Below, piece by piece: positions 6,318 through 25,825 of a DNA stretch of 28,222 nt. The stretch's first letter is position 1. Every line of letters begins with the position of its first letter. This stretch comes from Deltaproteobacteria bacterium TL4. Lineage in GTDB: Bacteria; SAR324; NAC60-12. Location of the stretch: NCBI GenBank assembly GCA_051382335.1, contig JBBCAX010000158.1:1-28222 (forward strand), written 5' to 3'. A model generated the notes under the pieces. That model was not told where the DNA came from. It made no database searches and saw only the letters and a program-made list of their open reading frames with translations. The position numbers and the translations under genes are program-made.

Positions 6318-7613
6318 CTATAGCTCGTCATTGATTTCGAATCCAACCAGGGTAATATCATCATTGAGTTTCATCTGTGGGTTTCCCATGTGGGTTAAAA
6401 TGCGGAGGTAGAGCGTTTCGATCAGCTCAGCCATGGGAAGGTCGCTATGGGCTTTCAGGGCTTCTTTCAAACGCTTTTTCCCAAACATTTCACCATGGGG
6501 ATTGGTGGTTTCCAGGATGCCATCAGTATACATGAGGACTTTATCCCCCGGAAACAGCGAAAGGCTAAGGTCCTCAAAGAGAGGCATGTCTTCAAAAGAT
6601 CCAAGAATCGTTCCACCTGTTTTGAGTGGTAGGAGTTCCTGTGTTTTGTGTCGAAGGAGGTAGCCTTCAGGGTGTCCGGCTGAGGAAAATTTCAGAGTTT
6701 GGGTTTTTGCGTCGTAGATGCAATAGGCCGCGGTGACAAACTTGTTACCCTGTATTTTCTTCAGGAGCGCTTCATTGAGCTTTTTTAGCGCTATTGTGGG
6801 AGAGTGAACACCTGGGGCAAAGGTCTTGAATAATCCTGAGACCAGAAAAGTGAGGAGCGCCGCTTCGACACCGTGTCCTGTGACATCCGCGATAAAAATC
6901 CCCACTTTTTCTTCTCTAAAATCAAGAAAATCATAAAGATCTCCGCCAAGTTGATCCATGGGCATATATTTGGAGGCCAGTCGGACTGAGGCAAGTTTTG
7001 TTTTTAAATGGGGCAGAAGCGAGAGCTGAGTGATTCTGGCTTGTGCCAATTCCTGTTCGATTTGAGTTTGAGCTTGTGTCAGATTGGTTGTGGCCTGAAT
7101 GAGGTGGTTATTCAGCTCCGTTTGCATCAAGAGGCTCTCTTTCAAATCTTCGTTAATGGCATCGAGCTCCTGATTTTTGGTATCCAATTCGATTTCTATC
7201 TTTTTTTGGCGGATGGCGTAGCGGATCGCGCGTTCCAGCAAAACAGTGTTGATTTCCCTTTTTACCAGATAATCTGTCGCACCGGTTTCCATCGCCTTAA
7301 CATCCACATCCATATCCTCGTTAGCTGTTAACAGGATCATGGGAGCCTTGCATCCACGCGCTATCGATTCTCGAATGATTTCAATGCCCGTTACCCCATC
7401 GCCAAGATAATAATCGATCAGATACACATCATGCCGAAAATCCATAATGGCTTGGATTGCGGAATCATACGTTCCTTCCCAGTCCAGCTTAAATCGATTT
7501 CTGTTTTTGCCAAGCATCTTCCGAACAATGAGATAGAGGGATTCATCATCATCAACAAGAAGAACCTTGAGGAGAGGGGCCTTTTGATTTTCAATGGAAG
7601 TGGATTTCAACAT
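6318..7613 (-). CDS. Response regulator-PP2C/SpoIIE (RsbU-like) serine phosphatase
   Basis: REC (VLLVDDD, YLIDYYL, DYLVK), then a coiled coil, then SpoIIE motifs GGDLYDF, IADVTGHG, SAGHP, YTDGILE and DDITLV. Start is ATG 7613 or TTG 7619, overlapping the upstream gene. Confidence 0.93.
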   Translation of the reverse strand: MLKSTSIENQKAPLLKVLLVDDDESLYLIVRKMLGKNRNRFKLDWEGTYDSAIQAIMDFRHDVYLIDYYLGDGVTGIEIIRESIARGCKAPMILLTANEDMDVDVKAMETGATDYLVKREINTVLLERAIRYAIRQKKIEIELDTKNQELDAINEDLKESLLMQTELNNHLIQATTNLTQAQTQIEQELAQARITQLSLLPHLKTKLASVRLASKYMPMDQLGGDLYDFLDFREEKVGIFIADVTGHGVEAALLTFLVSGLFKTFAPGVHSPTIALKKLNEALLKKIQGNKFVTAAYCIYDAKTQTLKFSSAGHPEGYLLRHKTQELLPLKTGGTILGSFEDMPLFEDLSLSLFPGDKVLMYTDGILETTNPHGEMFGKKRLKEALKAHSDLPMAELIETLYLRILTHMGNPQMKLNDDITLVGFEINDEL

Positions 7614-8703
7614 TTTCAAGATAATCTATGAGTTCGTTAATCAAGTCTTGGAGTTTTGACACGTTTTTCAGGTCTACGGCTTTTTCAAGCTCGGCGCCCA
7701 ATTCGTTAATGAATTTTAAGCCATGCGCTCCTTTTATACGGTACACCAAATTTCGAATTGTCGCAAAATCTTCTTGCTTCAGGGCTGCGTTAATTTTTTG
7801 TGCTTCCTTATATTTTATTTCAAGGACCTCATAAATGATCTCATCCAATTCCTGGTTGACGACCGCAATATACTTTAAGGCATCAGGCACAACGCTGTTT
7901 TTAGGCGTTGCTTTGCCACGAGGCTTGATGATCGGCGTTTGAGACAACGTCTTTTCAGAAATGTCTAAAATTTCATTAACGCTCTTCAGTAGCGTGTTCC
8001 CCGCATAAATAAGAGAGGAGACTTTAGCTTTCTGCTCTTGCTGAAGTGATGTACTTTCAAGATGTTTCAAGTCCTTGATGAGGGTATTCACGAGCGATTG
8101 AACTTCGCTTTTTTTTGTAAAAATACCTTCTACCCGAGAAAATTTATTCATGGTTCTGATCTGCTCTCCAAGTTCCTCAATTGTATTTTCAAGTACGACT
8201 TGAGTGTCCAGCAGGCGAGCATTCGTGGATTCATATAATTTGGCTTTATGGGTAGTAAGACTGAGCTTTTCTGTCAATATTTTGGCAAAAAGATGATATA
8301 AAAAATTTTGGAGGTCATCGGAATAGATATCTGAATATTCGCCCACTTCCTTTGAAGAAATACTGAAAACCTTGACAATACGAGTCGCAGCCATGATTGA
8401 CGCAGAACAAGGCTTGTGGTTAATGATACTCATTTCACCAAAGATATCGCCAACTCGCCGCAGCGTTAAAATCAAGGCGTTCTGTGCATAAACAGAGACT
8501 TCTCCGCGAATCAGGAAATATAATCGTGTATTGATATCTCCTTCTTTCAAAATGACGGCGTTCTGCGGATATTCCGAAAATTTTGCCAGTGGAATCAGTT
8601 TATTCAAAAAACTATCAGAGAACCCTTCAAAAATGCGGGCCTTCTTCAGATACGTTATGATTTCCTGATTGCTGTCGAATAAGAGGTTGTTTTCCACACT
8701 CAT
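7591..8703 (-). CDS. Cyclic nucleotide-binding domain protein with degenerate HisKA-like and HPt-like domains
   Basis: cNMP fold: IFEGFS...ILKEGD...LYFLIRGEVSV...GDIFGEMS. Middle segment QEQKAKVSSLIYAGNTLLKSVNEILDIS resembles HisKA helix 2. C-terminal DFATIRNLVYRIKGA...ELEKA resembles HPt. Start set at ATG 8703, 13 bp after the kinase stop. Confidence 0.82.
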   Translation of the reverse strand: MSVENNLLFDSNQEIITYLKKARIFEGFSDSFLNKLIPLAKFSEYPQNAVILKEGDINTRLYFLIRGEVSVYAQNALILTLRRVGDIFGEMSIINHKPCSASIMAATRIVKVFSISSKEVGEYSDIYSDDLQNFLYHLFAKILTEKLSLTTHKAKLYESTNARLLDTQVVLENTIEELGEQIRTMNKFSRVEGIFTKKSEVQSLVNTLIKDLKHLESTSLQQEQKAKVSSLIYAGNTLLKSVNEILDISEKTLSQTPIIKPRGKATPKNSVVPDALKYIAVVNQELDEIIYEVLEIKYKEAQKINAALKQEDFATIRNLVYRIKGAHGLKFINELGAELEKAVDLKNVSKLQDLINELIDYLENVEIHFH

Positions 8704-8716
8704 GATATTTTTCAAT

Positions 8717-10294
8717 TTATAATTCAGGTTGCGCAGTGACAGTTTCCGTAGCAGGCAGTGTGAAGGTGAAGACGGTGCCGCCGGAAACCGAGGTTTCATT
8801 TTTTTGCACTTGAATTTCTCCCCCATTTTTTACGACAAATTCTTTACAGAGGACTAACCCCAGGCTGGTACCTTGTTCTCCAGCAGTTCCTTTTTGACTG
8901 TACCGCTCCTCAATTTTGAACAATTTATCAAGGTGTTTTTCGGGAATGCCTACTCCATTATCAGAGACCGAGATCTCAACAAAATTCAGCGTTTGCGGTT
9001 CGTCGTTTTTCGTTTGCGAGGCGGCAATGCGCGGTTTTGCGCCAATAAGGACTTCACCGCCAGGATGGGTAAATTTGATGGCATTGGATACCAAATTTTG
9101 CAGGACGGTGCTCAACATATCATAATCCGTCAACACCACGGTTGCGGCTGGAACCGTATGCGCGAGTTTGATATTTTTACTTTTGGCGTTTTCAGAAAAA
9201 AGGCTGAGGGTCTTTTCAATCACTTCAGTCAAGTCAACTATTTCAGGCCGGCACTCCAGGTGTCCACGGGAAAGACGTGACCATTGGAGCAGATTTTCCA
9301 GGAGTTCCTGGAGTTTAATCGCCGATAAATTGATTCGTGTCGCGAAATCCAGGATTTCTTCTTGAGTAAAGCTGGTGAGGTCTTCGATCAAGAGATCTGT
9401 CATTTTTCGCATGCCGGTCAATGGACCTTTGAGATCATGGGAAATGATCAAGAAAAAGGTATCTTTACTCGAGTTAACTTCACTGAGTTTTTGCCCATAG
9501 TTTTCCAGTTGGACTTCATGCTGTTTGCGTTCTGTGATGTCGCGCAATGTAGCAAGGATGGCTTTTTTCCCTTGCCACTCCGTCTCAGAACTTTTCATTT
9601 CAGCGATTCCCTGCTCTCCATTTTTCCGGTGAATTGTAAGTTCAATGGGTTTTTCCCCAGTTGCGGAAATGGCAAAGGGACTCCCCAGGAGATTTTCCTT
9701 ACTGGTGTTGAGGAGGATTTCTGTCATAGGATTGACAAATTGAATAATCCCCCGTATATCCAGAATCATGAGGCCATCATTGCTCTGATTAACAATAGAG
9801 AAGAAGTTGGCTTTGCTGAGTTCCAAGTCATTTTTTGCCTTTCGCAATTCAGAAGTGCGTTCTTTGACTTTCATCTCCAGGGTCAGATTCATTTGCTGAA
9901 GTTCCTGACGCAGTTTGCGTTGTTCCAGTGCTTTTCTGATTGAAAAAATTAACATTTCCAACGATTGCACGGGTTTCATCAGAAAGTCTGAAATGTGGAA
10001 ATCGTTTAATAGCGCAAACGCTTCATTCAAACTTCCGTGTCCGGTAAGGACGATAACAGCCACATTCCAAGAGCGTTCTTTTAACTCTTTTAGAAGTGTG
10101 ATTCCATCCATCACAGGCATTTTTAAATCCATAATCATCAGATCACAGGGATGAGACTGATATTTCTCCAGCGCATCCTCTCCATTGACAGCACTCTCCA
10201 GTTGATAGGCTGTTTTACGACCTAACGCGCTAAATAAAAGATCACGGAGTGCCGGATCATCATCGACAATCAGGATACGTTCCGGTATATTCAT
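8717..10294 (-). CDS. Hybrid sensor histidine kinase (REC-PAS-HisKA-HATPase)
   Basis: REC ILIVDDD and DLKMP, PAS ending RDITERK, H-box SHDLKGP, N-box NLVSNAIKF, G1 DNGVGI, G2 GTSLGL. No TM segment. Confidence 0.95.
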   Translation of the reverse strand: MNIPERILIVDDDPALRDLLFSALGRKTAYQLESAVNGEDALEKYQSHPCDLMIMDLKMPVMDGITLLKELKERSWNVAVIVLTGHGSLNEAFALLNDFHISDFLMKPVQSLEMLIFSIRKALEQRKLRQELQQMNLTLEMKVKERTSELRKAKNDLELSKANFFSIVNQSNDGLMILDIRGIIQFVNPMTEILLNTSKENLLGSPFAISATGEKPIELTIHRKNGEQGIAEMKSSETEWQGKKAILATLRDITERKQHEVQLENYGQKLSEVNSSKDTFFLIISHDLKGPLTGMRKMTDLLIEDLTSFTQEEILDFATRINLSAIKLQELLENLLQWSRLSRGHLECRPEIVDLTEVIEKTLSLFSENAKSKNIKLAHTVPAATVVLTDYDMLSTVLQNLVSNAIKFTHPGGEVLIGAKPRIAASQTKNDEPQTLNFVEISVSDNGVGIPEKHLDKLFKIEERYSQKGTAGEQGTSLGLVLCKEFVVKNGGEIQVQKNETSVSGGTVFTFTLPATETVTAQPEL

Positions 10295-10463: not shown

Positions 10464-11507
10464 ATGCGTCACTGGATTCTTATCCTCATGTTGATTCTCA
10501 CTTTTCCCCTGACTTCGGTGTTTGGTGGTGAACCTGAAGAATTGGTTTTACTGACCTGGTCCGAATACATGGACGCGGAATTGGTCAAAAAATTTGAACA
10601 GCAGTTTCAGATCAAGCTCAAAGAGGTCTATTATGAAAGTGATGATGATCGAAACCAGAAGCTGTTGCTCACACAAGGAAAAGGTTATGATTTAGTCCTT
10701 GTTGATGGCACAACCGTGTTGTCCTATACTCAGCGTAACTGGATTGTCCCCATCGATTCCACGCAGGTTCCCAATCTTAAACATATCGATGAAAAATGGC
10801 TCAAACTCCTTCCTCAAATCAAAGCTTACGTTGTTCCCTACTTCTGGGGTACGCTGGGAATTGCTTATCGTCAAGATCTGGTCAAGCATCAAATCAGCAG
10901 TTGGAAAGATCTGTTCCAACCTGCTCCCGAACTGAAAGGGAAAATTTTGATGATCAATGACACACGGGATACGCTCAATGCCGGATTTAAAGCCTTGGGC
11001 TATTCCTTGAATAGCGAGAGTACCGATGAGTTAGCAAAAGTGGAGCAGTTGCTTTTGGCACAAAAACCCTTCGTTAAAGATTACACCTATCTTCAATTAG
11101 GAGAAAACTCGGAGCTGATTTCCGGGGAGATCTGGATGGCCTTGGCTTATAACGGAGATGCCCTGATGTTACAAGAACTGCACCCTCAGATCCAATTTGT
11201 CGTTCCCGAAGAAGGCACCATGTTATGGCAGGACTATCTGGTGGTGATGAGAGCCTCAAAGCATAAAAATAAGGCCTGGGCCTTCATTAATTTTCTCAAT
11301 GAACCTCAAAATGCGGCACAACTTGCATCTACCCTTTACTATGCGAGTCCCAACAAATCGGCGTTAAAATATATTGACAGTGCCATGTTGAAAGATCCTC
11401 GCATTTATCCTGACGACAGTACGCTTTCCAAATCCGAGTTAGTGGCTGAATTGCCTGGTCGTGTGAATAAAAGATGGACTTCCGTATTTGCCAAATTACG
11501 TCAATAA
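10464..11507 (+). CDS. PotD/PotF-family polyamine-binding periplasmic protein, NspS-like
   Basis: Signal peptide, plus TWSEYMD, VPYFWGTLGIAYR, VVPEEG, AWAFINFL and YASPN motifs. It has ESDDDR in place of the PotD ESNE segment. No potABC genes are adjacent. Confidence 0.9.
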   Translation: MRHWILILMLILTFPLTSVFGGEPEELVLLTWSEYMDAELVKKFEQQFQIKLKEVYYESDDDRNQKLLLTQGKGYDLVLVDGTTVLSYTQRNWIVPIDSTQVPNLKHIDEKWLKLLPQIKAYVVPYFWGTLGIAYRQDLVKHQISSWKDLFQPAPELKGKILMINDTRDTLNAGFKALGYSLNSESTDELAKVEQLLLAQKPFVKDYTYLQLGENSELISGEIWMALAYNGDALMLQELHPQIQFVVPEEGTMLWQDYLVVMRASKHKNKAWAFINFLNEPQNAAQLASTLYYASPNKSALKYIDSAMLKDPRIYPDDSTLSKSELVAELPGRVNKRWTSVFAKLRQ

Positions 11508-11513
11508 CCGCGA

Positions 11514-14168
11514 ATGAAATTACGATTCAAAATTCTATTGCTCCTGATTCCTTTAATTGTGATGCCCCTCCTGTTATTAGGCAAGATTGCCTATGACCGT
11601 CTCAAGAAAACTTCGCAACAAACGGCTTTGGAAGATGTACAGTTGATGCTTCAGCAAATGGAATTACGAACGCAGTCGGACTTCAAAACCATTAAAGCCA
11701 ACCTCAGTTTACTTTCAGAATCGAAATACCTCACCACCTATCTGCTCACCAACGATGAAAATACCCGCTACGGTTTGATGCAAAGGCCACTTTTGGAGAT
11801 TTTCGCGAGTTATCACAGGGCTTACCCTGATTATTATGAAATACGGATTCTTCTTCCTGAGGGCTATGAGGATGCACGGTACACTGTTGATCAAATGAAC
11901 AATAGGACTGAAGAAGAACAAAACTCCATTTATTTTCAGGAAATGGTTCAAGCTCAAGAAGATGAATTTAGCACGCCTTATCTGAATCCCGATAATCAGG
12001 AAGTGGCTTTATTTGCGGCCAAGAAATTAATGCTGAAAAATCCCGTTACGGATAGTGCGTTTGCCCCGCCAACGTTGAGGGGATATCTGGCTTTTACCGT
12101 TCGTCTTCAGTTTTTAAAACAACAAATTGAACAAAATCCTATTTTACATAAAAGCTCTTTATTCGCGTTGGATGACAAAGGGAAGGTCCTGTTTCATAAA
12201 TCTGCCGAACTGGGACACGCGGCCTTTTCTGTGGAACTCTTTACGTCCCTGCGGGAAAACATTCGAAACCACACTGTTCTTAAAGCAGAATACGAAGGAG
12301 TTGTTTATTATTTTCAAGGGAAGCAACTCCATCCCAAAATTTTTCTAATTGCGCAACTTCCTGAAAGCGCTCTTTTAGAAGACGGGCACTTGTTAAAGAA
12401 AGTGGTTTTTGTCATTACGTTCTTAAGTATTCTTCTCACCGTCATTTTGAGTTATCTTTCCTTGGATCTAATGATTTTACGGCCTATTAAAAAGCTGGCC
12501 AAAGCCACGCGCGAACTCCGTTCTGGAAATTATCAGGTTCAACTGGAAATCAAGTCCAAGGATGAAATTGGCATGTTGTCACAAGATTTCATACAGATGG
12601 CAAATGATATTCACCAATCCAACAGGCAAATTGAAGGCTATAACCTGCACCTCGAAGAAAAAGTCAAGGAACGTACAGAAGATTTACACAGCGCCTATTT
12701 GGAAATTTCGCACCTGAATCAACTGGCTCAGACCGTCAATGCCACCCTGGATATTGACGCGGTTCTTAAATCGGTGACGGAAGCGCTCCGATCGGTTTTT
12801 CATTTTGATGCGATCAGTATTGTTCTGATCGATGAAAAAAATAAAAATTTGTTTTTCAGGCACATTTACAGTGATGAAATTGCCCCTGATATTATTAAGC
12901 AATATCTACACACACGCATCCCACTTGACGAAGACAGTAGTGCGTTTGCGGATAGTATTCTGAAAAACAATCGAATTTTCATTCCTAAAATCACAGAGGA
13001 ACATCTCAAATTTATGAAACCCTACGATAAAGGAGCTTATGAAGTTATAAAAGCGATTGCCTTTTTGTTTTATCCTTTGAACGTCCAAAATAAAGTCATC
13101 GGCGCGTTATGCTTTGCCAATTTTTATACTCCGTTTACTCTACTGGAACCCGAGCTTGCGACCATAGAACGCTATGTAACACAAATTGCGACGGCGATTA
13201 ACAATGCTCAGGTGTATGAAGATTTAAAACACACAAAGGTTCAATTAGCGGAAACTGAAAAGATTGCGGCCATGACGAAAACCTTTGAACGTTTTGTGCC
13301 TAAACAGTTTCTTGATCGGGTTGCGAAAGAAGGGTTGGGTAATATTCAACTCGGAAAAGCGGAAAGTGATTTTGTGACCATTTTATTTTCAGATATCCGA
13401 GCCTTCACCACGCTTTCTGAAACAATGAATCCCCAGGAATTACTTAATTTTCTGAACGCCTACCTGACACGCATGAACGAAGCCATCCATAACTATGGAG
13501 GCTTTGTCGATAAGTTTATTGGCGATGCCATCATGGCTTTATTTGACGATCCTGGAGGTTCTCACCATCAGTCCGCGCACAATGCGGTTTATGCGGCAAT
13601 TGCCATGCAGAAAACACTCGATATCTACAACAAGCATCGTGCCCAAACAGGCTATCCGCCAATTACCATAGGCATTGGACTCCATAGTGGAATTTCTATC
13701 TTTGGAACCGTAGGGTCCCATGACCGGATGGATACCACCGTTTTAGGCGATACCGTCAACCTGGCCTCTCGTTTGGAATCGGTTACCAAGTATTATAAAT
13801 GTCAAATCGTCGTTTCCTCTCAAACATTCCGTTTATTGGAACATGATGACCATATTTTATGGAGAGAATTGGATTATGTGAGTGTTAAAGGAAAAAAAGA
13901 ACCTGTTTGTATTTTCGAAATTTTTAACACCAATACCGACGAGATCATAGCATTAAAAAAACAAATCCTCTCTCCATATCACGAGGGGTTAATGAATTTT
14001 CACAACCAGGATTGGAACCGGGCCATTCAACTATTCAGAAACTGCCTGGCCATCTTTCCCGATGATCCTGTGTGTCAAATTTATCACCAACGCGCCCTTG
14101 ACTTTCAAACCACCCCACCTCCCACTGATTGGAAGGGAATCTACGCTTTTTCCCATAAAGAATTTTGA
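11514..14168 (+). CDS. Class III adenylate cyclase: TM-periplasmic (Cache-like) sensor-TM-HAMP-GAF-catalytic domain-C-terminal TPR-like tail
   Basis: HAMP (RPIKKL...DEIGMLSQDF), GAF-like region, and catalytic FSDIRAFT, DKFIGDAIMA and MDTTVLGDTVNLASRLE. The Lys/Asp pair indicates ATP specificity. The gene starts 6 bp after the binding-protein stop. Confidence 0.93.
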   Translation: MKLRFKILLLLIPLIVMPLLLLGKIAYDRLKKTSQQTALEDVQLMLQQMELRTQSDFKTIKANLSLLSESKYLTTYLLTNDENTRYGLMQRPLLEIFASYHRAYPDYYEIRILLPEGYEDARYTVDQMNNRTEEEQNSIYFQEMVQAQEDEFSTPYLNPDNQEVALFAAKKLMLKNPVTDSAFAPPTLRGYLAFTVRLQFLKQQIEQNPILHKSSLFALDDKGKVLFHKSAELGHAAFSVELFTSLRENIRNHTVLKAEYEGVVYYFQGKQLHPKIFLIAQLPESALLEDGHLLKKVVFVITFLSILLTVILSYLSLDLMILRPIKKLAKATRELRSGNYQVQLEIKSKDEIGMLSQDFIQMANDIHQSNRQIEGYNLHLEEKVKERTEDLHSAYLEISHLNQLAQTVNATLDIDAVLKSVTEALRSVFHFDAISIVLIDEKNKNLFFRHIYSDEIAPDIIKQYLHTRIPLDEDSSAFADSILKNNRIFIPKITEEHLKFMKPYDKGAYEVIKAIAFLFYPLNVQNKVIGALCFANFYTPFTLLEPELATIERYVTQIATAINNAQVYEDLKHTKVQLAETEKIAAMTKTFERFVPKQFLDRVAKEGLGNIQLGKAESDFVTILFSDIRAFTTLSETMNPQELLNFLNAYLTRMNEAIHNYGGFVDKFIGDAIMALFDDPGGSHHQSAHNAVYAAIAMQKTLDIYNKHRAQTGYPPITIGIGLHSGISIFGTVGSHDRMDTTVLGDTVNLASRLESVTKYYKCQIVVSSQTFRLLEHDDHILWRELDYVSVKGKKEPVCIFEIFNTNTDEIIALKKQILSPYHEGLMNFHNQDWNRAIQLFRNCLAIFPDDPVCQIYHQRALDFQTTPPPTDWKGIYAFSHKEF

Positions 14169-14238: not shown

Positions 14239-15653
14239 TCAACATTCAATCAATGTAACACGACGTTTAGCGCGAGTTATGGATACGTACTGAAGACGTC
14301 GGGCATCGTCAACGCTGATCCATCCAGTGTTCCATCCCTTGGGAAGAACCAGAATAACCTCGTCAAACTCCAAGCCTTTTGCGCGATGCATGGTGGCAAT
14401 ACGAATTGTTTTGGAATTGGATTGATCTCGTTCATTTGGGGCAATCACTTTGCATGGGATTGCATTGTTTTTTAATGCAGTTTCAATCGCTCCCCCTGTT
14501 TTTTTTGTTGGTGTAATCACACAGAGGGTGGTAGGTGATTCTTGATCATTAGAAACCGTTTTTGCATGGCTTACCAACCAGGCAAGGGCTTCTTCCAAAT
14601 GGGAGAATTGAAGCAATTCCGGGGAGACTCCGTGTGAAATGGATTTGTAGCGTTTGGACTCGTCGGTGCCATTATCCAAATCATCAATCTCGCAATCTTC
14701 CAAAACGGCTACGGCCTTGGTTCTGATTTCTTCAGTTGTGCGATAGTTCAAATATAGTTTTCGGGATCGCCCCCGAATATCAATACCACAGCTACTCATT
14801 GTAGAACGGTTTCGACTGTAGATTCGTTGATGTCCATCTCCCACAAAGAAAAGGTCATTGGCCCCTTTCGGAACCATTGCTCTCAACAATTTCAGTGCTT
14901 GTGTTCCAAAGTCCTGGGTTTCATCTACGATAATGGAAGAATAACGCGCAGGCAGTCCTTTCAAGAGGGTTATCGCGTCACGGTAAGCATCATCCACTTC
15001 CTTGAGCTTTCGACTGGCTAGTTGAGCCCGGTATTCTTCAAACACTGGCCAGATTGCGTCTCGTTTCGTTCGATTGAGAACCGTTTTGCGCCCAGCCCGC
15101 TTAGCCATCCGGTATTCATCGCCTGTTGTAATCCCTTGCGGAAGTATCACTTGCTCCAGTTCTTCTTGATAAAACTGCTCGGACAAAGTCAGGGAGGTGT
15201 CTTGGATAGCCAACGCGGTTTTCCAGGCGTCTTCTGCGGCTCCTTTCTTTCTGTTATACACGATGGTGTGTTCATAATTGTTGCCGCGTAAAAATGCCTT
15301 CACCCACGCATCGAGATTTTTGATCTCAATATTTTGCATGACTGACTCAGAACATAGGCTTTTCAGATTCTCCTCAATATCAATGGCCAAATTATGGGTA
15401 AAGGTAGTGAAGAAGACCTTCGAATCACCTGTGGTGAAATTTTGTGCTAACCACTTCGCACGATGCATCGCCAGCACGGTTTTACCCGTTCCAGCACCCC
15501 CTGAACTCTCACCGAACCGTTACGATTCCCTGAGGCAAGTTTGCGTTGAGTCGGGTGCAGGAAAATTCGCCACTGAGCAAGTGGGGCATTCAGAATGGCC
15601 ATCATGGTTTCATTATCATCCACCACAACAAAACGGGCCTGGGATTCGGGAGT
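14239..15653 (-). pseudogene. UvrD/SF1 helicase, N-terminally deleted and frameshifted
   Basis: PESQARFVVVDD...WRIFLHPTQRKL is followed by a 1-bp frameshift near 15503 (gtt cag ggg gtg instead of VLGGAGTGKT). ORF 14239..15477 carries VDETQD, GDGHQRIY, LNYRTT, TMHRAKGLEFD and YVSITRA. Confidence 0.88.
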
Positions 15654-16046
15654 TTGAAATATATTGAACAACCAAAGCCAGCGACGCCATGCCAAATGAT
15701 TTGCGGATTCATCATGAGCGTGGGTCTCATCATAGACAATAAAACCTGGGCTGTATTCTGGGAGTGATGTTTTATCAATGAGGGTTGCAGGCCACCAGTA
15801 TCGAACCAAAGTTGCTTGGGTTGCTGTTGAGGTATTGCCGCAAGTCGTACTTTTTTTGGGTTTTATTTTTTGAAAATCCGGCCTTTCAGACCAAAATTGT
15901 TCCAAGGCTGTCCGGGCGGAAATCAGGGTAGGATCCGTGGGATGCGGCACCATCTGAAAAGCCAAAGCACCTGCTGAACGACATATTTTGAGGGCATGGG
16001 CATCGGTTGTAGAGCCTGGAGGTTTTCCCAGCCATTCAATCAACAG
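15651..16046 (-). pseudogene. C-terminal fragment of the large YprA-like helicase, fused in frame to the UvrD remnant
   Basis: LLIEWL...AWRRWLWLFNIFQT resembles the C-terminus of this large helicase family (recalled, not searched). It runs directly into UvrD-like PESQARF. Confidence 0.6.
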
Positions 16047-17416
16047 TGTTTACAGAGTTTAAAACCCGGGCGTTGTTTCTCTAGATCGGCGACTTTGTAT
16101 GCCTCACCGAATTTGGCGGACTCTCCAAAATTGACATCCCGGAATTGGGCTTGCGCAATAAATTCAAAACCGAAGGGCAAATCATCTGCCTTCAGACGAT
16201 ACGCCTCAAGAATGCTCGACTGTTCAAAATCGACTAATAACTGACGCACATAAAACTTGGGTTCACGATCTTCCGCGCTATCATCAATGCGTGCGTCGAC
16301 CTCGTTACTGTTGGCAATCGCCTGTTTGAAACGCAGTAACTGCCGCCGCTAGGAGATATTCGACCACATCGGGTCACCGCAACGAGGGCAGGAGGAATGG
16401 CTGTCAGCTTCAATGGTCAGGTTCTCCATGTAAGGGCAGGAGGGACACAACCGCCACGATTCCAGTTTTGACAAGTTCAAATTGATCTGATCGATCTCGA
16501 CACGATGCTGATTGGCATAAAACACATTTTCCGGGGCAAATTCCGACAGTGCCGAATTGGCGGGTCGTTCATACCTCTCAGTCGGCAAGGAGACATAAGC
16601 CTTGCTGCCAGGATCATCATTGCCGCGTTTTCTCCAGAGAAGTGATTTAAGCTCAATTCCGGCTTCAGGGAAAGCGTAGTTTGGAATGAGTCCGGCATCA
16701 GTTAAGGTATTGAGCAACTCCCTCTGGTTAATTTCCTTGACCAGCTCCATTGCTTTTTGGCGTTCGCAATCAAGTTGATCGATCTCAGCGACAATGGCTT
16801 GGTCTTTGGGTTTAGCCTTCAGCCCTTTGATTTGAGTTTTAATGAGATCCGCTCGTTTTTTATGGACTTGCCGTTCGTTCACCAGTTCTTCGAGCATCTT
16901 GATCAAGCGCAGAGACAAGCTGTCGTCAGTTGTTGTCCCATGCATAAACGCGGTGAGCCGCGATTCCACTCGATCATCAAGATCACTTCCCAGGAGGATC
17001 AGAAAATCGGCCAGTAACTTGGCTCTTTTTTGATCGACATAGGAGAGGAACGTATAGGGAAATTTTGTTTGATCCAGGCAGTCACGAGCGTCGAGCGCTT
17101 CCTTTGTTTTTTCCGGAAGAGCGGTATCCGGGACGCCGGAACTCACCCAGTTATCGAGGCAGAACGCGAACAACTGGCGGCGCAGGACTTCGGCTGCTTT
17201 GAGGAATATTCCTGGCGGAGTCACCTCCCCTGAGATCATCTCCTGAGTGTCTTCAAAAAAGTAGAGATCATGCGGGCTGTTGCCATCGGCCAGTATGGTA
17301 GCCAAAGCGTTTCCGTCTCGTCTTCCCGCGCGGCCGATACGCTGCAAATAACTGGCTTGATTGGGGGGGACTGAGCAGAGCAGAACCGAAGACATTGCGC
17401 CAATGTCTACTCCCAT
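16040..17416 (-). pseudogene. Central fragment of YprA/DrmB-like DEAD/DEAH helicase (HelicC and Zn ribbon) with in-frame TAG
   Basis: Motif V EMGVDIG, motif VI QRIGRAGRR, GLIPNYAFPE, CPSC/CPRC. The TAG at 16349-16351 is followed in frame by RRQLLRFKQAIANSNEVDARIDDSAEDREPKFYVRQLL, joining ORF 16040..16249. Confidence 0.87.
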
Positions 17417-17417
17417 T

Positions 17418-19502
17418 TCAACGCTCTACAGGCATCTTGAGTGGAGAGTCTTTCTCAAACCAACTCTGCTCGACACGTTCCAGAAATTCCGGCCAGGGAC
17501 AAGAGGGCTTGGCCGTTAGATCAATGATCCGGGCTAATCCTGTTCTGACTGTATTGCCGTAAGTCCGTGCAGAAAAAAAACCGGCTCGATGGGCGGCATC
17601 CTGGACTGAATCTGAAAAAGCGATCAGTTTCTTGTCATCATTATAAAGACTGGACCAGGTATGTTCGATGGCGACCGCTCCCAGCGTCGCGTTGCGGGCA
17701 CCTAATAAAATCTGCCGGTCGCGACTGCCACAAGCAGGGCAAATTCGATTGTGCCAGGTATGAGTCACCCCGGTTGTTGAGGTGCTGGTGCTCGTGGCCG
17801 TCACATAAAAAACCGCGACCAGTTCTTTATGTCCACAGCTCAAACACGGAACATTGTCGCTTTGCAAGCTCCCGCAACTTGGACACAGACTCCTGGGAAT
17901 CCCCTCACAGAGAGGGTGGCTAGCCAGAGGCGCGTACAAGCGTGCGACCTCCGGTTGACTGGCAAACCAGGCGTTGTAAATCTCGTCAAGTTCGCTTCTC
18001 ACCATATTCTGCCCCTCAAGAACACAGCCCAACCAACCGGTCGTGTGGCAGTCCGTACACTGAATCAACGGGAGAGACAGATGGTCTTGTCTTGCTTTCA
18101 AATCTCTACTGGCTCTCAATTCGATCTGGTTTGGATGAGCACTCACATTGGTGACCATGCGGCGCAATTCCCGCATCCACAACTGGATTTTCAAGGTGAC
18201 CAAGGGTCGATTCGGGACGACCGGGTCCCGGGCCCAGGCAATCAGGGACAGCAGCGCGTCCAAGACCTCGCGAAGGTGCTGCCTTGCGGATTCCGGCAGT
18301 GGCCCTCGCAATTGCTGCTGCAAGTCCGCCATGGCTACTATTTTTCCTTGCATGATCTTCAGCAAATTATGGAACAACAGGTGCTGTTTCAAATGCCCGC
18401 CAAGTTCAGCCCGCCAGGTTAATGCCTCAACATTTTCTGGTGCCTTCAGACCAGGAAAAAATAACTCAAACCATGCGGCTAAAGCGTCATTCTGAGTGGC
18501 ATAGCGTCCGATGTCTAATTTTTCAGCAAAGTCAGAACGTGGGTGCAAAACGTGCTCAATGGCGCTGCTGCCCAGGAATTCAAATTCGGATAGGCGTTTT
18601 TCCGTAATGACGGATTCCGGAGGAAAAGGGACACCAAACACTTGTCGGGCATATTCGCGTAATGGCTCAGAATTCGTGCCGCCGCCCAGTGTCGCGGAGG
18701 TCCCAGCGCAGATCAGATGATCTTTGGGGGTTTGCAGTCGTGCCCTTAACCGACGCAGTAACAGAGCCAAATCGGTCCCTTGAGCGCCATCGAACGTATG
18801 CAATTCATCCACAATCACATAGCGCAAGGTGGTGGGGGCGTTGTTGTCCCACAAGTGCCGGTCTTTGGGACGGATCAGCAGGTAATCCAGCATTTTGTAG
18901 TTGGTGAGCAAAACATCCGGCGGACTTTTGCGCAAGGTGTCACGGTCTGTGATGACGCTGTTTGCTGTCATCACCATGCCTCCTCCGGTCTTCCCTTTCT
19001 GCCCGCCGATGAACAACCCGACTCGCAAACCATTAAACGCCGGAGTTTTGGCAATCACCTGAGCAAATCGCAGGGCCTGATCATTGGCCAGCGCATTCAT
19101 CGGGTAGATCACCAAGGCTTTGATGCCTGCTTGCCCCTCACCGAGTGCACGAGCGCAGTGCTCCAGTACCGGATAAAGGAAACACTCGGTTTTACCACTG
19201 CCGGTGCCGGTCGCTACCAGCGTATTGGCGGCTTCATGGTCACTGGAAAGCCGTTGCCACGCGGCTTCCTGATGGGTAAACCCAGGGTGTTCTGTCTCGA
19301 AATGAGCAAAGAATTTATTGCCGGCTTGCCCCTCACGAAAAGGCAAACCCACCTGCACATACGGCCCCTTCAACCAGCGGCTTTCATCCTCGGTAAAGCG
19401 CCGCATGATGCCTGAGAACAGCGGATCCGACGGTTCAAAACCCGTGATTAGAAACTGTTTCAAGCCTTGTTGAATTTCATGAGCCAACAGTGAAGGTAAC
19501 AT
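17418..19502 (-). pseudogene. N-terminal fragment of YprA/DrmB-like DEAD/DEAH-box helicase
   Basis: Motifs HQ, TGTGSGKTE, YPMNALANDQ, LLTNYKMLDYLL, DELH, TSAT, several CxxC pairs and FSDSVQDAAHRAGFF. The ORF stops abruptly at PVER*, out of frame with the next fragment. Confidence 0.88.
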
Positions 19503-19562
19503 AAAATACACTTTTCATTATTCTTTTTTGGAACGCAAGAACCTGAACCACTCTGGTTTGTT

Positions 19563-19826
19563 TCAGGATTGAAGGGCGGTTTGAGAATATAAACTTTTTG
19601 CCAAATATTCTTTATAGTTCTCTGATAAATCTCCTGGACCCGGAGCACATCCAATGAAGCCATTCTTTTTCATGATCTCCAGCGGACTTTGTTGATTGAT
19701 AGTCAATTGATCATAATCCAAATCCAGGGCTTTTTTGATAATATCTGTCAGGGAATCCTGAGTTGTTTCCTTCAGGAATTCAATCTTGTAAGCACTCTGA
19801 TCATCTAATTGTGCATTGAGTATCAT
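19563..19826 (-). CDS. CopG/RHH-like antitoxin-type DNA-binding protein (orphan)
   Basis: ILNAQLDD...SLTDIIKKAL RHH-like N-terminus and C-terminal GFIGC...DLSENYKEYL tail, typical of CopG-family antitoxins. ATG 19826 is preceded by GGAG. Confidence 0.72.
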   Translation of the reverse strand: MILNAQLDDQSAYKIEFLKETTQDSLTDIIKKALDLDYDQLTINQQSPLEIMKKNGFIGCAPGPGDLSENYKEYLAKSLYSQTALQS

Positions 19827-19952
19827 ATGAATCTCCAAAAACATTGTATTGAGTATCACGCATTGTAAGACGTTTGTAATAGGGTCGCAAGAAAAAGAGA
19901 GGTGTTGCTCACTACCAAGTTAAAAACGCAATAACGCAAGCCAGACCCTTGT

Positions 19953-20183
19953 CTATGCAGTCAGATCGAAATATTTAAATGTTTTTTCAATGCCTCCATC
20001 AGGATTTTCACGAATTTCATCCATTTTTTTGATTGCATCAGGATTATAAAACGATTCACCACAGTTTTTGCACGAAATCAAAGGGACTTTATCGATAATC
20101 ACTGTTGATCCTGACATCGTTTTGACAACTTGTGTGGTTAATATTTCCCTTGCTCTATCAGTTTGACAACTCGGACATATCAT
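19953..20183 (-). CDS. YgiT-type zinc finger protein (MqsA N-terminal-like, no HTH)
   Basis: MICPSC...IIDKVPLISCKNCGESFY. ATG 20183 has RBS GAGGAG, 1 bp after the upstream stop. Confidence 0.85.
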   Translation of the reverse strand: MICPSCQTDRAREILTTQVVKTMSGSTVIIDKVPLISCKNCGESFYNPDAIKKMDEIRENPDGGIEKTFKYFDLTA

Positions 20184-20184
20184 A

Positions 20185-20478
20185 TTAAAACTCCTCAAAA
20201 ATGGTGATGATGATCACATCAGAAACTTCTTTCACAACAACTCCGATTTTTCTATGATCCTTTGCTTTACCATGAATTACCCATTTCCACCCTCCTGTTT
20301 GATCACCCTTTTGCCGAGCAACAATTCTTCCACTTAAAATTCCATGGATCATATCACTTTCCTTGAACCCATCATTCATCATTTCTTCATAAGCATGTTG
20401 GGTGATTCGATAATGCTGATTCTTAATTTTTTCTTGAATCCTTGAAAGTGTTTTACTGTACATTAAAATCTCATTCAT
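20185..20478 (-). CDS. DUF4258 domain protein (putative RelE/MqsR-like toxin)
   Basis: YRITQHAYEEM, I..G.I, KWVIHG, R.IGVVV, IIITIF pattern. Paired with a YgiT-type zinc finger gene. Confidence 0.82.
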   Translation of the reverse strand: MNEILMYSKTLSRIQEKIKNQHYRITQHAYEEMMNDGFKESDMIHGILSGRIVARQKGDQTGGWKWVIHGKAKDHRKIGVVVKEVSDVIIITIFEEF

Positions 20479-20567
20479 TCCATCTGGTCACCTTTTGCAG
20501 GATAAACCGCAACAGGGTATGTATACTCAACGGTGGCATAAGTTAAACTTTTATTATCTCTGTTTTT

Positions 20568-20597
20568 ATTATAGCCTGAATTCACTGGAGTTGGCAA
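20568..20597 (-). promoter_or_regulatory. Putative sigma70 promoter for the DUF4258/YgiT pair
   Basis: On the minus strand TTGCCA (20597-20592), 18-nt spacer, TATAAT (20573-20568), about 90 bp upstream of the DUF4258 start. Confidence 0.65.
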
Positions 20598-20685
20598 ATC
20601 AAGATTTTTTTCTCTGCGGCTCCATTTTACCGCTGCTGGAGCAGTAAGACCAGGTGCGAATAAAAACGTTAAGTACAAGCAAAAA

Positions 20686-23600
20686 TCAGCGTTGAACCTG
20701 GTTTCCATGCTCACGCTTCTGCTTCGCGAAAAAGTCCCAGGCGATGCGGTAATCGGTTTCACGGTTGGCCAATGCAAAAGGCGCGGTGTACGTGCGGGTG
20801 CGGATTTGCGGGCCGCCGGGTTGGGTGTCATCGTTCACGGTAGTGGTGACGGTACTGCCTACAGGTAAGGTGCCTGCCTCTTGCATTTGACGCAAATCCT
20901 CCCAACCAAATTTTTTAGTTTGGGTGCGGCCTTCAGGAAACATGATCGTCACATCCGCTGAATTCCGGCTGCCTTTGCGAGGCAAACCAACCCCGACCAA
21001 GCCTTTGCTGTTAGTGAAAACAATCCGTCCCTTCAGGTCATACCAAGTATCTCGTTCGTACCCTTGCATCACTGGAAACTGCACCCGGTAAATCAGCAGC
21101 AATTCCTCCAACGTCAAACCCAAAGCTTGCGCCACCAGTACATCAATTTCCACCAGCGCCATGCGGCGGGCATAGTCACTGCGCAAGGCACAATGTCGCT
21201 GCCATTCAGGAGTCAGCGCCCTGAAGAAGACTTGCGGCAACCGAGGGTTTTCCTGCTGGCTTCAGCGTTGTTGGGTGAAATCGAAAGTGAAGACTTCTTC
21301 CCAGAGTGGTGCGTAATGCTTGGTCAGGCAGTTGAGAGCGAGCGCACGAACTGCAATATCTGAAGTGAGTGTTTGTGGAATCGGAAGCTGGCTGACAAGG
21401 CTCTTATTTGCGTGCCCCATGCCAGTCGATTTCACACGGAAATCGACAGGAATTGACTGACTGAATGCGAGAAATCCTGACAATTCCTGAGTTGATTTAA
21501 AAACATGCCCAAAGCAAGTATGTACTTGTCCTACACCTGGCGGCACCAATGTGGTAATTAGGGTGCGTTCTGATGATGGCCCAATCATCTCCCGATTTAC
21601 CAGTCTAAAATACTCCGTCACCCGTTTTTGACGCCAGCGTTGGACGGCTACGGCTTGGCCTTTTTGATTCTCGTGCCGAGCTTGTTCCTCCAGTGTGAGT
21701 TGATTCCACGGCAGTGTTACTGTTTCGGCTTCCTGCCAACTGACCCGTGGAGTACGGCGTTCGTATTCTTCCCGGTCTGCCATCGGACGGTAGTTGCTGC
21801 GCGGCAGATAGTCGTCCGGAAGAGTTTCGAGGTTGAGCGGATCGTAGGCCTGGTTATGATTGCAAATAGCACGAGGGGTTTTGTTGAAGGGGTTCGCCAG
21901 GAAAAAATGCGGACCGGACAACACCCACTCTTCCGGTGCAACGGCAAACGGCGCACTACGGTCGGTGTTACGGATGATCGTGCCGTCATGTTGCTGCATG
22001 GTTTCGTGCCACATCTCAGTGGAAAAATAATCATCTCCCAAATCGCCTAACCTGCGTGGATAATCAGCCAATTTTTTCAAGACACCAGAGAGTTTTCCCG
22101 TGTGCAAGGCCGGGAGACGGGCGCGGCGCGGCGGAGTGCCAGGTTCATCATAGAGTTGGGCAAAGACGGTCAACTCCTGATCCGAGACTCGAACAATGCG
22201 GTCAGCATGACCGACTGTATTCCATTTCCCTTGTTCGTTTTTGTAACCACCTACAATGCCTTCGCCATCATGTGCATAACAGGCATCCACGGTAGCTGGC
22301 GAAAATAAATTAGCAATCTGATCAAAACTGGTCTGTATCTGCTGAGAACCATACACGTTGATGCTGTATTTGGTATGGTGATCTACCTCGGCAAAGAGCT
22401 GAAACTCATTCACAAACTGAAAATGTGCTCGCAACCGGGCATACACCGCTTCACGCAGAAATCCCCCATCTGGATCATCGTAAGGGCTTTCCGGGTGAAG
22501 GTAGCCCACCACCCCCTGATTGTTGACCAGCATCCAACCTAACGGAATAAAGCATTTATAAAGGTTGGCTTTCATGCCTTTGAGCAAAGGATAATTCTGC
22601 ATGGCATTGAGGAAATTCTGGGTGGCTTCCGCTTCTTCAAGTTCCGCTGTCCACTCATCTTGCAGTGTCGGAAATTCGGCAAAGGCCGCGCTGCGTTGTC
22701 GGGCCAGTTCGGTGGCACTGAGTTTGCGAATGGCGACCAGCGGATTGGCTTCTCCGAGCACACCGGCTTCGTTCCATTCCACCTTGATCCAGGGCGGGTT
22801 ACCCAGGACTAAATCAAAACCTCCTCTTTGTTGGAAGACATCGGCAAAGGTCAATTCCCAGTGCAGGAAACGCCGAGTTTGGGCAATGGCTTCCACGGTA
22901 GCGATACGGGAAAAGTTTTGGCGGAGTTTGCTGATGCGGAGTTGACCGAATTTATCATGTAAACGGGGAGGAGTCCCCGTCAGAGAGAGTGTGGGCTGGA
23001 CGGGTCCAAAAAAATCACCTTGCAATTCGGGCAGCAGTTCAAGGGTCACCTCTGGTTTTTCTTCCAGATCGAATTGGGTTTGGGGGTTAAGATCGACGAT
23101 ATTGCCTTCGAGAATCGCGCCTATTTCAAGCCACCACTGTTCACGGCTGGGCAAGTCGGCGCTTTGGGTGATCGGCCAAAACCACAAGGCGCACCAATAA
23201 TCCATGACGAGTTTGAGACGGCGGTAGGAGGTCGCAAGGTCGCCGTCATCGTTCAGAAAACCTTGTTTCCGAACCGCTTCTTTCTGCGCTCGGGAGGTCG
23301 TTCTTCCCGTCGTGTCAGCAGGCCACAGGGGAACCAGGTCTTCGGTACGACTCCGGTCTTTGATCAAACGCTGAGTGTGTTCTTCCCAGAGATAGTCAAT
23401 GACTTCTGAGAGCTGTTGCAGGCGTTTAAGCTCATGAGTTTCCAGTGGCTGAGTAAAAGTTTTGCGCCAGGTATTGATACGTTTAAATTCGTCAGGATAA
23501 AGGGCTTTGGCGACTTTATCACTGTAGTTGGCCATACCGGGATCAGGGAGCAGGAAGTGATAGATTTCGTCTTTTTCGCGTGGCGCGCGATCACCACCGA

Positions 23601-25803
23601 TCAATGATTGAGGGGCCAGTCGACGCGGAGCCGTTTTGTACCAGGCAAGCTTGAAGCCTTTACGTAAGTGGCTGGCGGGATAGACCTCACGACGGGATCC
23701 AATGAGGCTGTTGCCCTCAAACAACTGGTAACCAAACCAGGGCACATGCGTTGGTTTGAGGGGTTGACCGGATTCAGACGGTTCCCCATAAATGGCATTG
23801 AGCCAAAGACTGACTTCGGCCAGTTCAGTCGCAATGGGGTTCAAATCGACACCATAAGCATTGAGGTCGGCAATGTACATGCGGGTTTTTTGCAGTTCCA
23901 GCGGGTATTGTTCGTGAGAAACGCGGCGTTTCAATTCGGTTTGTTTTCGTTCCAGGTAAGCTTCCGCTAATTGGTTAATGGCCTCATTCAAAAACGCGGC
24001 GCTGCCCATCGCAGGTTCAACCAGCGTAAGTGTCAGAATTTCATCAGCGCTTTTGTCCTTCAGCAATTCTTTGAGCGCGTATTTCACCAAACAACGGGTG
24101 AGCACTTGAGGGGTATAGTAACTGGCGCTTTTTTGCCGGTCGCGTCCCGCCAGACGATAGATGAAGGTATCACGCGGATATTTTCGCAGACTTTTACGAC
24201 CGTGTTCATCTACATCATGCACTCGTTCGGCAGGTTCGTATTGATCAATGCGGCTGGCCGGGACAAACCAGGCAGAGTCCATGAGGTCGGTGCTGCCTCC
24301 TCCGCTGCTGTCTTCCTCCTTGTTCTCGTCAAGATCGTCCTCATCGTTACTTTGTGTTGTTTTTTTAGGCTTAGGCTGGACCTCGTAAAGGTCTTCCTTC
24401 GCAAAGAATCCCCGATAAGAGAGCAAGGCTTCATACACCGCTCCCAGTTGGTTGATCGACAGCAATTGATAACTCACTCTGCCTTTGCTGCGGCCACCGG
24501 AGAGAGACATCAGCCGAATGACGCGCTGCCAGACATGATTGGGAAAACGCACCTGATTGAGCAAAGGCGTGGACGCCGGGTCAAATAACTTGCTGTCGAG
24601 CGGAGCTAACGTGAAGGCTTCTTTGAGACTTCCTGCGGTAAGGCTTGGCTGCACGGCAGTGCTGCAACCCTGGTCTATCAATGAAAACAGGCGGCGCAGT
24701 GTGGTATCAAAATACATCCCGTCACGAGCCGTGGGCGTGTTGAGTTGGGTGAGCTCCAGATCCCGCAGAGCTTCGAGGCTGTAACCTTTAGCGTAGATCT
24801 CGCTTTTTTGGATGGGCACATACCCGAGTTCCGGACGGGCTTCGATGTAAAACATGAACAGCAGACGATAGACCAGACGCAGACATTCCAGACTCAGATC
24901 AGCCACATCCACGGCATCTTTTCCGCTATAAAATCCCTGTTTGTTCGCCTGTGCTTTTTTTCGTAGTTGCTGTACCGCTTCATTACCAAGAAGCTCGATG
25001 GCTTCGCGCAAGGCATATTTAAGGTCATCGCTCACACTGAAAGCGTGCTTGTGGGCATTTTCCTCCAAGCCTTCCAGCAAACTGGCTCCCTGGCCTGGAG
25101 CAAGACTTTCATGGTGCAGTAAAGCTGCAGCAGCCTGCAGGGTCGCCGTGTCTTTGCGGTCGAGAATTTCGGTCCAGTCAAAACGCAGCAGACGGTTGTT
25201 GGGCCATTTGTAACGGTCAAGCAACAGCCATTCTTTGAAGCCCACCAGAATGACATAACGTGGCGCATTTTGAGCTCCCAGCAGAGCTTCGGAGACAATT
25301 TCCAGCCAACTCAAATTTTTGAGAGCTTTGGGAACTTCCTGTCCGCCATAATGAGAGAGAGTAAGTGTGTGATCAAGGGGATCGCTTTCTTCCTGTCCCG
25401 GTTGATACGCCGGTACAATAACGAGTTGAGGCGCCTCGTGCTGCTGCCCTAGTACCACCCAAACCGGCAGAGGCATTCCTCCCTGGAGTTCGATTTCTTG
25501 AGGCTGCACGTGGTACCCCAGTGCTTCCAGCAAGGGACCATGCAACTGAGCGTGGCTATTCAAGCGCGCCTGATCTTCTCGCTGTCGGGTGTGGCTGGTC
25601 AGTCCCGCAAACCATTTACCGCCCAAACCGGCAATACGTTTATGAGGAGCACGAGCAGCGGCATCCGCCTCTTCCGCTGCCTGCCATCTTTCAATCAAAG
25701 TGCGGATATCGCCTTTGAATACTTCTGCCAGGTAGTGGTGTCCATAGAATTCGTTTTCGTTAGTAATCCCGGAGAAGGGCTGAACAGCGTGGGCTACGGG
25801 CAT
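20686..25803 (-). pseudogene. Large Eco57I/type IIG-like amino-DNA methyltransferase (about 1705 codons) split by one in-frame TGA
   Basis: SASYYTP, motif I EPAMGSAAFL, YGVDLNP, FLHWEL, motif IV GNPPW and KANLYKCF. The TGA at 21262-21264 is followed in frame by SQQENPRL, continuing into ORF 20686..21240 (ALRSDYARRMALVEIDVLVA...QFPV...YERDTWYD). Confidence 0.88.
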
Positions 25804-25825
25804 AAGATTTTCCTTGTCAGATAAT

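Follow-up and report, generated by a model that had tools for sequence, protein, structure and literature searches.

The window analysed here is a stretch of 28,222 nucleotides from Deltaproteobacteria bacterium TL4, of the SAR324 lineage (contig JBBCAX010000158.1, assembly GCA_051382335.1). At positions 10464..14168 it carries two adjacent genes that probably encode a two-part receptor, in which a periplasmic binding protein resembling NspS would capture a polyamine, dock on the outer dCache domain of a membrane-bound class III nucleotide cyclase, and change the synthesis of cyclic AMP (cAMP). With less assurance, we lean towards a broader reading, that the pair is a binding-protein-gated adenylate cyclase turning outside polyamines into cAMP and also a branch of a large family of plug-in polyamine antennas, with cyclic di-GMP (c-di-GMP), kinase, and cAMP outputs, that is ancestral to the NspS-MbaA system. 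If true, periplasmic binding proteins would count adenylate cyclases among the receptors that they control, and polyamines would become a named input for one of the many orphan cyclases of a little-studied lineage.

Both genes lie on the + strand. The first (10464..11507) encodes an NspS-like binding protein of 347 amino acids, which has an N-terminal hydrophobic segment, is assigned to SBP_bac_8 by Pfam, and is called NspS-like from pocket mapping and its place in a tree. A gap of 6 bases (11508..11513) separates it from the second gene (11514..14168), whose open reading frame (ORF) and Pfam matches give a membrane class III nucleotide cyclase of 884 amino acids. This gap is within the 20 bp used elsewhere for a PotD-like gene beside a two-transmembrane HAMP receptor gene (PMC9993111). 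The outer domain of the cyclase is flanked by two hydrophobic membrane segments, at about residues 1-28 (11514..11597) and about residues 291-325 (12384..12488). HAMP follows (residues 321-367; 12474..12614; Pfam), then GAF (residues 413-562; 12750..13199), the class III cyclase domain (residues 617-799; 13362..13910), and, in the C-terminal tail, a borderline TPR-like repeat (E 0.001; 13977..14066) that is clearer in a relative, L103. The preliminary description of this DNA had placed a PotD-family gene 6 bp upstream of a two-transmembrane sensor-HAMP-GAF-cyclase gene, with no ATP-binding cassette (ABC) permease or ATPase nearby. That arrangement is confirmed: no permease or ABC ATPase is present among the 16 window proteins scanned. 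A scan for promoters and terminators gave counts no higher than chance.

The binding protein resembles PotD, the binding subunit of polyamine transporters, yet by its equivalog score, its lack of permease neighbours, and its place in the tree it is not a PotD or PotF transporter subunit. It reaches 145 bits, whereas the PotD cut-off is 582. The only other PotD-like gene of the genome, 31% identical to it, sits in a complete potABCD at C154, where all potB and potC matches of the genome are also found. In the main tree (54 hand-picked rows, with a bootstrap not fully settled, and with S. meliloti and Shinella rather than V. cholerae representing NspS), a branch with 100/100 support parts 16/16 transporter-linked proteins from 38 signalling proteins. 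The signalling side comprises the 347-residue protein, S. meliloti NspS, and 36 others, the Shinella NspS among them. An earlier quick tree of 63 rows gave the same split a support of 98. At position 60, 15/16 transporters have Asn, whereas 34/38 signalling proteins have Asp or Glu. Given the separate potABCD, complete with a PotD, and the split in the tree between the two kinds of protein, identity as the transporter PotD is excluded, and sequence comparison supports a role in signalling rather than transport. This agrees with the preliminary description, which had asked how the protein would group against NspS, PotD, and PotF: it groups on the NspS side. The same description held that a cognate potABC elsewhere would count against it; a potABC does exist at C154, but it has its own PotD. 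In view of the wider family, many genes now labelled as subunits of polyamine transporters are likely to act in signalling.

The ligand pocket points to a polyamine. Eight pocket residues of V. cholerae NspS, predicted to contact norspermidine, have been listed; all are kept in S. meliloti NspS, and three are absent from PotDs (PMC9993111). Mapped by spacing, they correspond to W32, D60 or D61, D81, F127, Y229, D232, W255, and D257, and 8/8 are identical between the 347-residue protein and S. meliloti NspS. The amine anchors of PotD, E36, E171, and D257 (PMC4096761), correspond to the pocket residues E34, D169, and D257; PotD Y85 and Q327 are T83 and V327 here. No basic residue occurs in the 16 pocket columns inspected. 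We infer a ligand that is spermidine or norspermidine, or else a polyamine close to them. The sign of NspS identity put forward earlier, a PYFWG-type motif, was rejected, since transporter PotDs carry PYFWG as well; the NspS motifs of the preliminary description were compared with S. meliloti NspS only. At a related locus (L077:5722-11801), a binding protein, an S-adenosylmethionine decarboxylase, a sensor-GGDEF-EAL protein, and a spermidine synthase are encoded in one run, so that the pair is interleaved with genes for spermidine synthesis. The host itself has an nspC gene that scores above the cut-off (G000:C90:39666-42863), beside an upstream ORF resembling a dehydrogenase and a convergent one resembling a ureohydrolase, both named by sequence reading.

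The pairing of binding protein and sensor is conserved, as had been proposed. A genome scan with an alignment of 41 binding proteins confirmed at least 538 relatives. Among the best 79 loci, drawn from several phyla, 77 encode the same periplasmic domain and the remaining two stop at a contig edge. The 81 such sensor genes, tallied by motif with Pfam run on most, comprise 53 with a GGDEF-type motif, 18 with a kinase motif, 5 that are incomplete, and 5 that no motif classifies; no cyclase fusion is among them. In 401 genomes evenly drawn from another class there were 14 matches, and of the 13 loci fetched the sensor is downstream in the 9 best-scoring and absent in the 4 weakest. Within the host phylum, the binding protein is found in 4/88 genomes and the sensor in the same 4. 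All 8 of these sensors lie directly behind a binding-protein gene, 3 ending in a cyclase and 5 in kinase domains; this tally and that of the 79 loci are not fully independent, with one locus possibly in both. A correlation between binding-protein and sensor distances (rho 0.45; best of 1000 shuffles 0.37) was not counted, because shared ancestry could produce it. A search of plasmids for the sensor gave no match, and a metagenome scan with a sensor-cyclase alignment gave ordinary cyclases among the matches listed, with the pair at 1 of 79 loci, there with a kinase output.

Variants of the arrangement were also seen. In L025, L054, L061, L062, L064, and L067, two or three tandem binding-protein genes precede one sensor, which suggests several antennas per receptor. 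Genome G008 has seven binding-protein paralogues. In it a LytTR DNA-binding domain is fused to a diverged sensor (L129:8482-10876), whose gene converges with one for a binding protein; this may be a fourth type of output. Another locus (L007:7026-8384) has a sensor-HAMP protein that lacks an output domain, behind an intact binding-protein gene.

The sensor of the cyclase (residues 29-296; 11598..12401) belongs to the subfamily that follows NspS-like binding proteins. Pfam gives it a weak dCache_1 match (residues 33-233), and the ESM Atlas matches it to generic dCache only. A sensor-domain profile built without the 884-residue cyclase gives it 300 bits, while the second-best ORF in the genome gets 20, and its predicted model, with a predicted local distance difference test (pLDDT) score of 92, has a double Cache fold. 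In solved dCache domains, the ligand-binding Asp aligns with position 195 of the sensor, where the TL4 protein has Thr; among 50 sensors this residue is Thr in 46, Ser in 3, Ala in 1, and Asp in none. A terminal Asp is common to the amino-acid and amine dCache motifs (bioRxiv 2023.04.06.535858), so the sensor does not carry the end of either dCache_1AA or dCache_1AM. The lack of Asp at position 195 is easier to reconcile with a docking surface than with a pocket that binds amines directly.

The cyclase domain keeps the full set of residues of a class III adenylyl cyclase: the two metal-binding Asp residues D627 and D671, Lys667, Thr742, and the catalytic N749 and R753. The base-selecting position was located as Asn minus 7, from the D566/N573 spacing in PMC5967339, which assigns the combination of Lys with either Asp or Thr to adenylyl cyclases. 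The preliminary description was right on the metal pair, the Lys, and the N..R pair, but the second ATP-selecting residue is Thr742, not Asp. The site is thus an intact Lys/Thr adenylyl cyclase site with cAMP as its predicted product, and the best match among solved structures is CyaB. The host genome has 28 class III cyclase ORFs, with 44 cNMP-domain (cyclic nucleotide monophosphate) and 16 GGDEF matches over the cut-off. The named close relatives of the 884-residue cyclase are mostly labelled SAR324.

The swap of output to a cyclase is supported, and it is rare. Searching a sensor-cyclase profile against 1.84 billion representatives (best 150 matches), together with 120 homologues, gave 247 proteins for examination. 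Sensor and cyclase domains occur together in 5 of these: the 884-residue cyclase, L100 (G016), L103 (G008), P0131, and P0243. The usual output is GGDEF-EAL or a histidine kinase. An upstream binding-protein gene is confirmed for three of the five, all in the host phylum (TL4, L100, and L103). In a quick cyclase tree the five stand in five places, with well-supported branches that force at least 3 changes, and the cyclase output was probably swapped in by three or more separate fusions. P0243 carries the same sensor on a kinase-receiver-cyclase hybrid of 1074 amino acids.

GAF had been put forward as an added cytoplasmic input. This finds no support, since the other 4/5 sensor-cyclases lack GAF, and the exact sensor-HAMP-GAF-cyclase architecture appears once among the 247 proteins. 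The nearest relatives of the domain are GAF-cyclase paralogues of the same genome, in which a GAF-helix-cyclase cassette recurs at 39-43% identity in four paralogous cyclases. NKFDE is the motif of cyclic-nucleotide-binding GAF domains, and no Lys follows an Asn in residues 537-546. Most likely, the GAF is a relay inherited with the cyclase cassette.

The relation to NspS-MbaA is that of a sister type. The S. meliloti locus L110 (strain Ak57) served as the reference, taken as NspS-MbaA by its match to the nspS-mbaA description in PMC9993111; its binding-protein gene overlaps a gene for a 790-amino-acid SGDEF/EAL protein. From 401 genomes of one order, 40 of 61 matches were fetched. Among these, 14 partners match the rhizobial MbaA profile (54-251 bits) but not the profile of the TL4-type sensor, 8 match the TL4 type, and none has a cyclase. 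L252 was added as a fifteenth MbaA-type row by appearance and gene overlap alone. The tree gathers the 12 binding proteins whose partners are of MbaA type into one clade (100/100), which is nested among the TL4-type rows and leaves out the 347-residue protein. Pairwise BLAST and shallow profiles between S. meliloti MbaA and the cyclase sensor are not significant. Deeper profiles align over 164 distal-module columns (89%, E 2e-6), with generic dCache controls reaching up to 90%. In a model of the MbaA-type domain, which matches Cache folds and has LuxPQ as a weak fold match, the helices and strands of the distal module are as in the cyclase sensor and the proximal module is reduced. The earlier claim of the same sensory module is not supported in that form: the binding protein falls outside the MbaA-paired clade, and the sensor is longer and no closer to MbaA-type sensors than generic dCache controls are. 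On sequence grounds, the pair would work like NspS-MbaA but is a sister type, not an orthologue or strict member.

In the proposed mechanism, the binding protein would close on a polyamine in the periplasm and, once liganded, dock on the membrane-distal module of the dCache sensor. From there the signal would reach the cyclase dimer by way of the second transmembrane segment, HAMP, a helical or coiled linker, and GAF. For V. cholerae, the proposal is that NspS docks when it carries norspermidine, which promotes synthesis, and lets go when it carries spermidine or is empty (PMC8079147). In MbaA it is thus the synthase that docking promotes, and by this analogy we incline slightly towards docking that activates the cyclase. 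The module as a whole would act as a plug-in polyamine antenna in which, within a cAMP-rich lineage, a cyclase has replaced the output on several occasions. Several points weigh against this picture. Genomic context is available for only 3/5 sensor-cyclases, P0131 and P0243 being without it. The separate origins in the tree mean that an individual fusion may be young and poorly coupled. The cyclase-linked relatives vary in the pocket (S81 and E232 in L100; G81, T127, and W229 in L103), so the ligand may differ among them. The characterised MbaA sensor is of a different, shorter subfamily, and docking is carried over from one subfamily to another. Moreover, orphan SBP_bac_8 proteins beside sensor kinases in P. 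aeruginosa bind gamma-aminobutyric acid (GABA) or 5-aminovalerate, not polyamines, and did not bind the neighbouring sensor (PMC11113362).

The P. aeruginosa proteins raise the question of whether the same receptor could serve a ligand that is not a polyamine, such as an omega-amino acid, a diamine derivative, or agmatine. The place of the binding protein outside the NspS clade proper, and its T83 and V327 at the positions of PotD Y85 and Q327, would also fit such a ligand. Against this, the protein is acidic at all PotD amine anchors and at D60, D61, D81, and D232, shares all eight pocket columns with S. meliloti NspS, has no basic residue in the 16 columns, and belongs to a family tied to spermidine synthesis at L077; a different ligand is unlikely. 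It is a still less probable case that no docking takes place, with the dCache sensing the ligand directly and the binding protein buffering polyamines or feeding the PotABC of C154. Direct amine binding is frequent in dCache domains (bioRxiv 2023.04.06.535858), the adjacent binding proteins of P. aeruginosa failed to bind sensor domains (PMC11113362), and potABC is present in the genome. However, the sensor lacks the terminal Asp found in both the amino-acid and the amine motif, PotABC is encoded together with a PotD, the pair is kept across several phyla despite a changing output, and the binding-protein clade follows the sensor subtype (12/12 for the MbaA type).

A recent shuffle could also have left the periplasmic signal weakly passed on, or not at all, with GAF or bicarbonate/CO2 as the main driver of the cyclase. 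Lys/Thr cyclases include bicarbonate-stimulated enzymes, the cassette stands behind other N-termini in the genome, and the exact architecture is found once. Yet both genes are intact, the sensor residues are conserved, sensor-cyclase fusions recur, and coupling from HAMP to cyclase is common, which makes this explanation very unlikely. That the product is cGMP (cyclic GMP) or another cyclic nucleotide is hardly credible: one Pfam family covers all class III domains and specificity is read from sequence alone, but Lys667 and Thr742 are an adenine-selecting pair (PMC5967339) and CyaB is the best solved match. The two-part polyamine receptor with cAMP output remains the preferred reading.

The surroundings of the pair hold other features. 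A divergent three-gene cluster on the - strand (6318-10294) encodes a REC-PAS-histidine kinase, a cNMP-domain protein with a helical tail, and a REC-SpoIIE phosphatase. Arg is usual in the cNMP pocket motif; the neighbouring protein has Cys there, and seven proteins of the genome, this one included, share a close Cys-type pocket, an expanded variant in the host genome. The gene was considered as a dedicated effector, which is unsupported given this pocket and the many paralogues. A second class III cyclase, of membrane type, lies on the same contig (2140-3378). Downstream, on the - strand (14239-27976), a region of higher guanine-cytosine content encodes a DrmD-like SNF2 helicase, a type IIG restriction-methylase, a UvrD helicase, and a DruE-like helicase that is divided between two frames near 17417. 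It is likely a defence island, partly broken.

A literature search, with most subscription papers outside its reach, found no description of a binding-protein/dCache-adenylate cyclase pair, and the available text of PMC8967002, PMC9602780, and PMC5646818 holds nothing on cyclase output. A 2014 survey by Cockerell reportedly covered NspS-like genes beside c-di-GMP proteins, and the wider binding-protein/sensor family may be partly described there already. No solved structure of an NspS-type protein switching a dCache-HAMP receptor turned up. With cAMP as output, an E. coli cya mutant would offer a simple assay of the pair, through which this kind of switching could be studied. The dCache-like receptors in PMC8050422 include ChiS and ScrC; the partners of binding proteins named in its available text are chemoreceptors, sensor kinases, GGDEF/EAL proteins, and Ser/Thr kinases, with no adenylate cyclase among them.

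Compared with known systems, the binding protein shares its fold family and the three amine anchors with E. coli PotD and PotF, but it is 25-29% identical to them, far below both cut-offs, has no permease neighbours, and has Asp at 60 and 81 where PotD has Asn62 and Ser83. The cyclase is like the CyaB/CyaC-type membrane class III adenylyl cyclases in its catalytic domain and Lys/Thr selection, and differs in its predicted input, a separate periplasmic binding protein. LuxP-LuxQ, CBP-ChiS, and ScrB-ScrC use a binding protein to control a dCache-like sensor, with other binding-protein families and other outputs. NspS-MbaA is alike in the PotD-like gene directly upstream of a two-transmembrane dCache-fold/HAMP receptor, in the side of the tree, in the eight pocket residues, and in the helix and strand order of the distal module. 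It differs in its overlapping genes, where a 6-base gap is found here; in its sensor of about 232 amino acids with a reduced proximal module, against about 268 with a full one; in its binding protein, which falls within the clade paired with MbaA-type sensors; and in its SGDEF-EAL output, in place of which the TL4 receptor has GAF and a class III cyclase.

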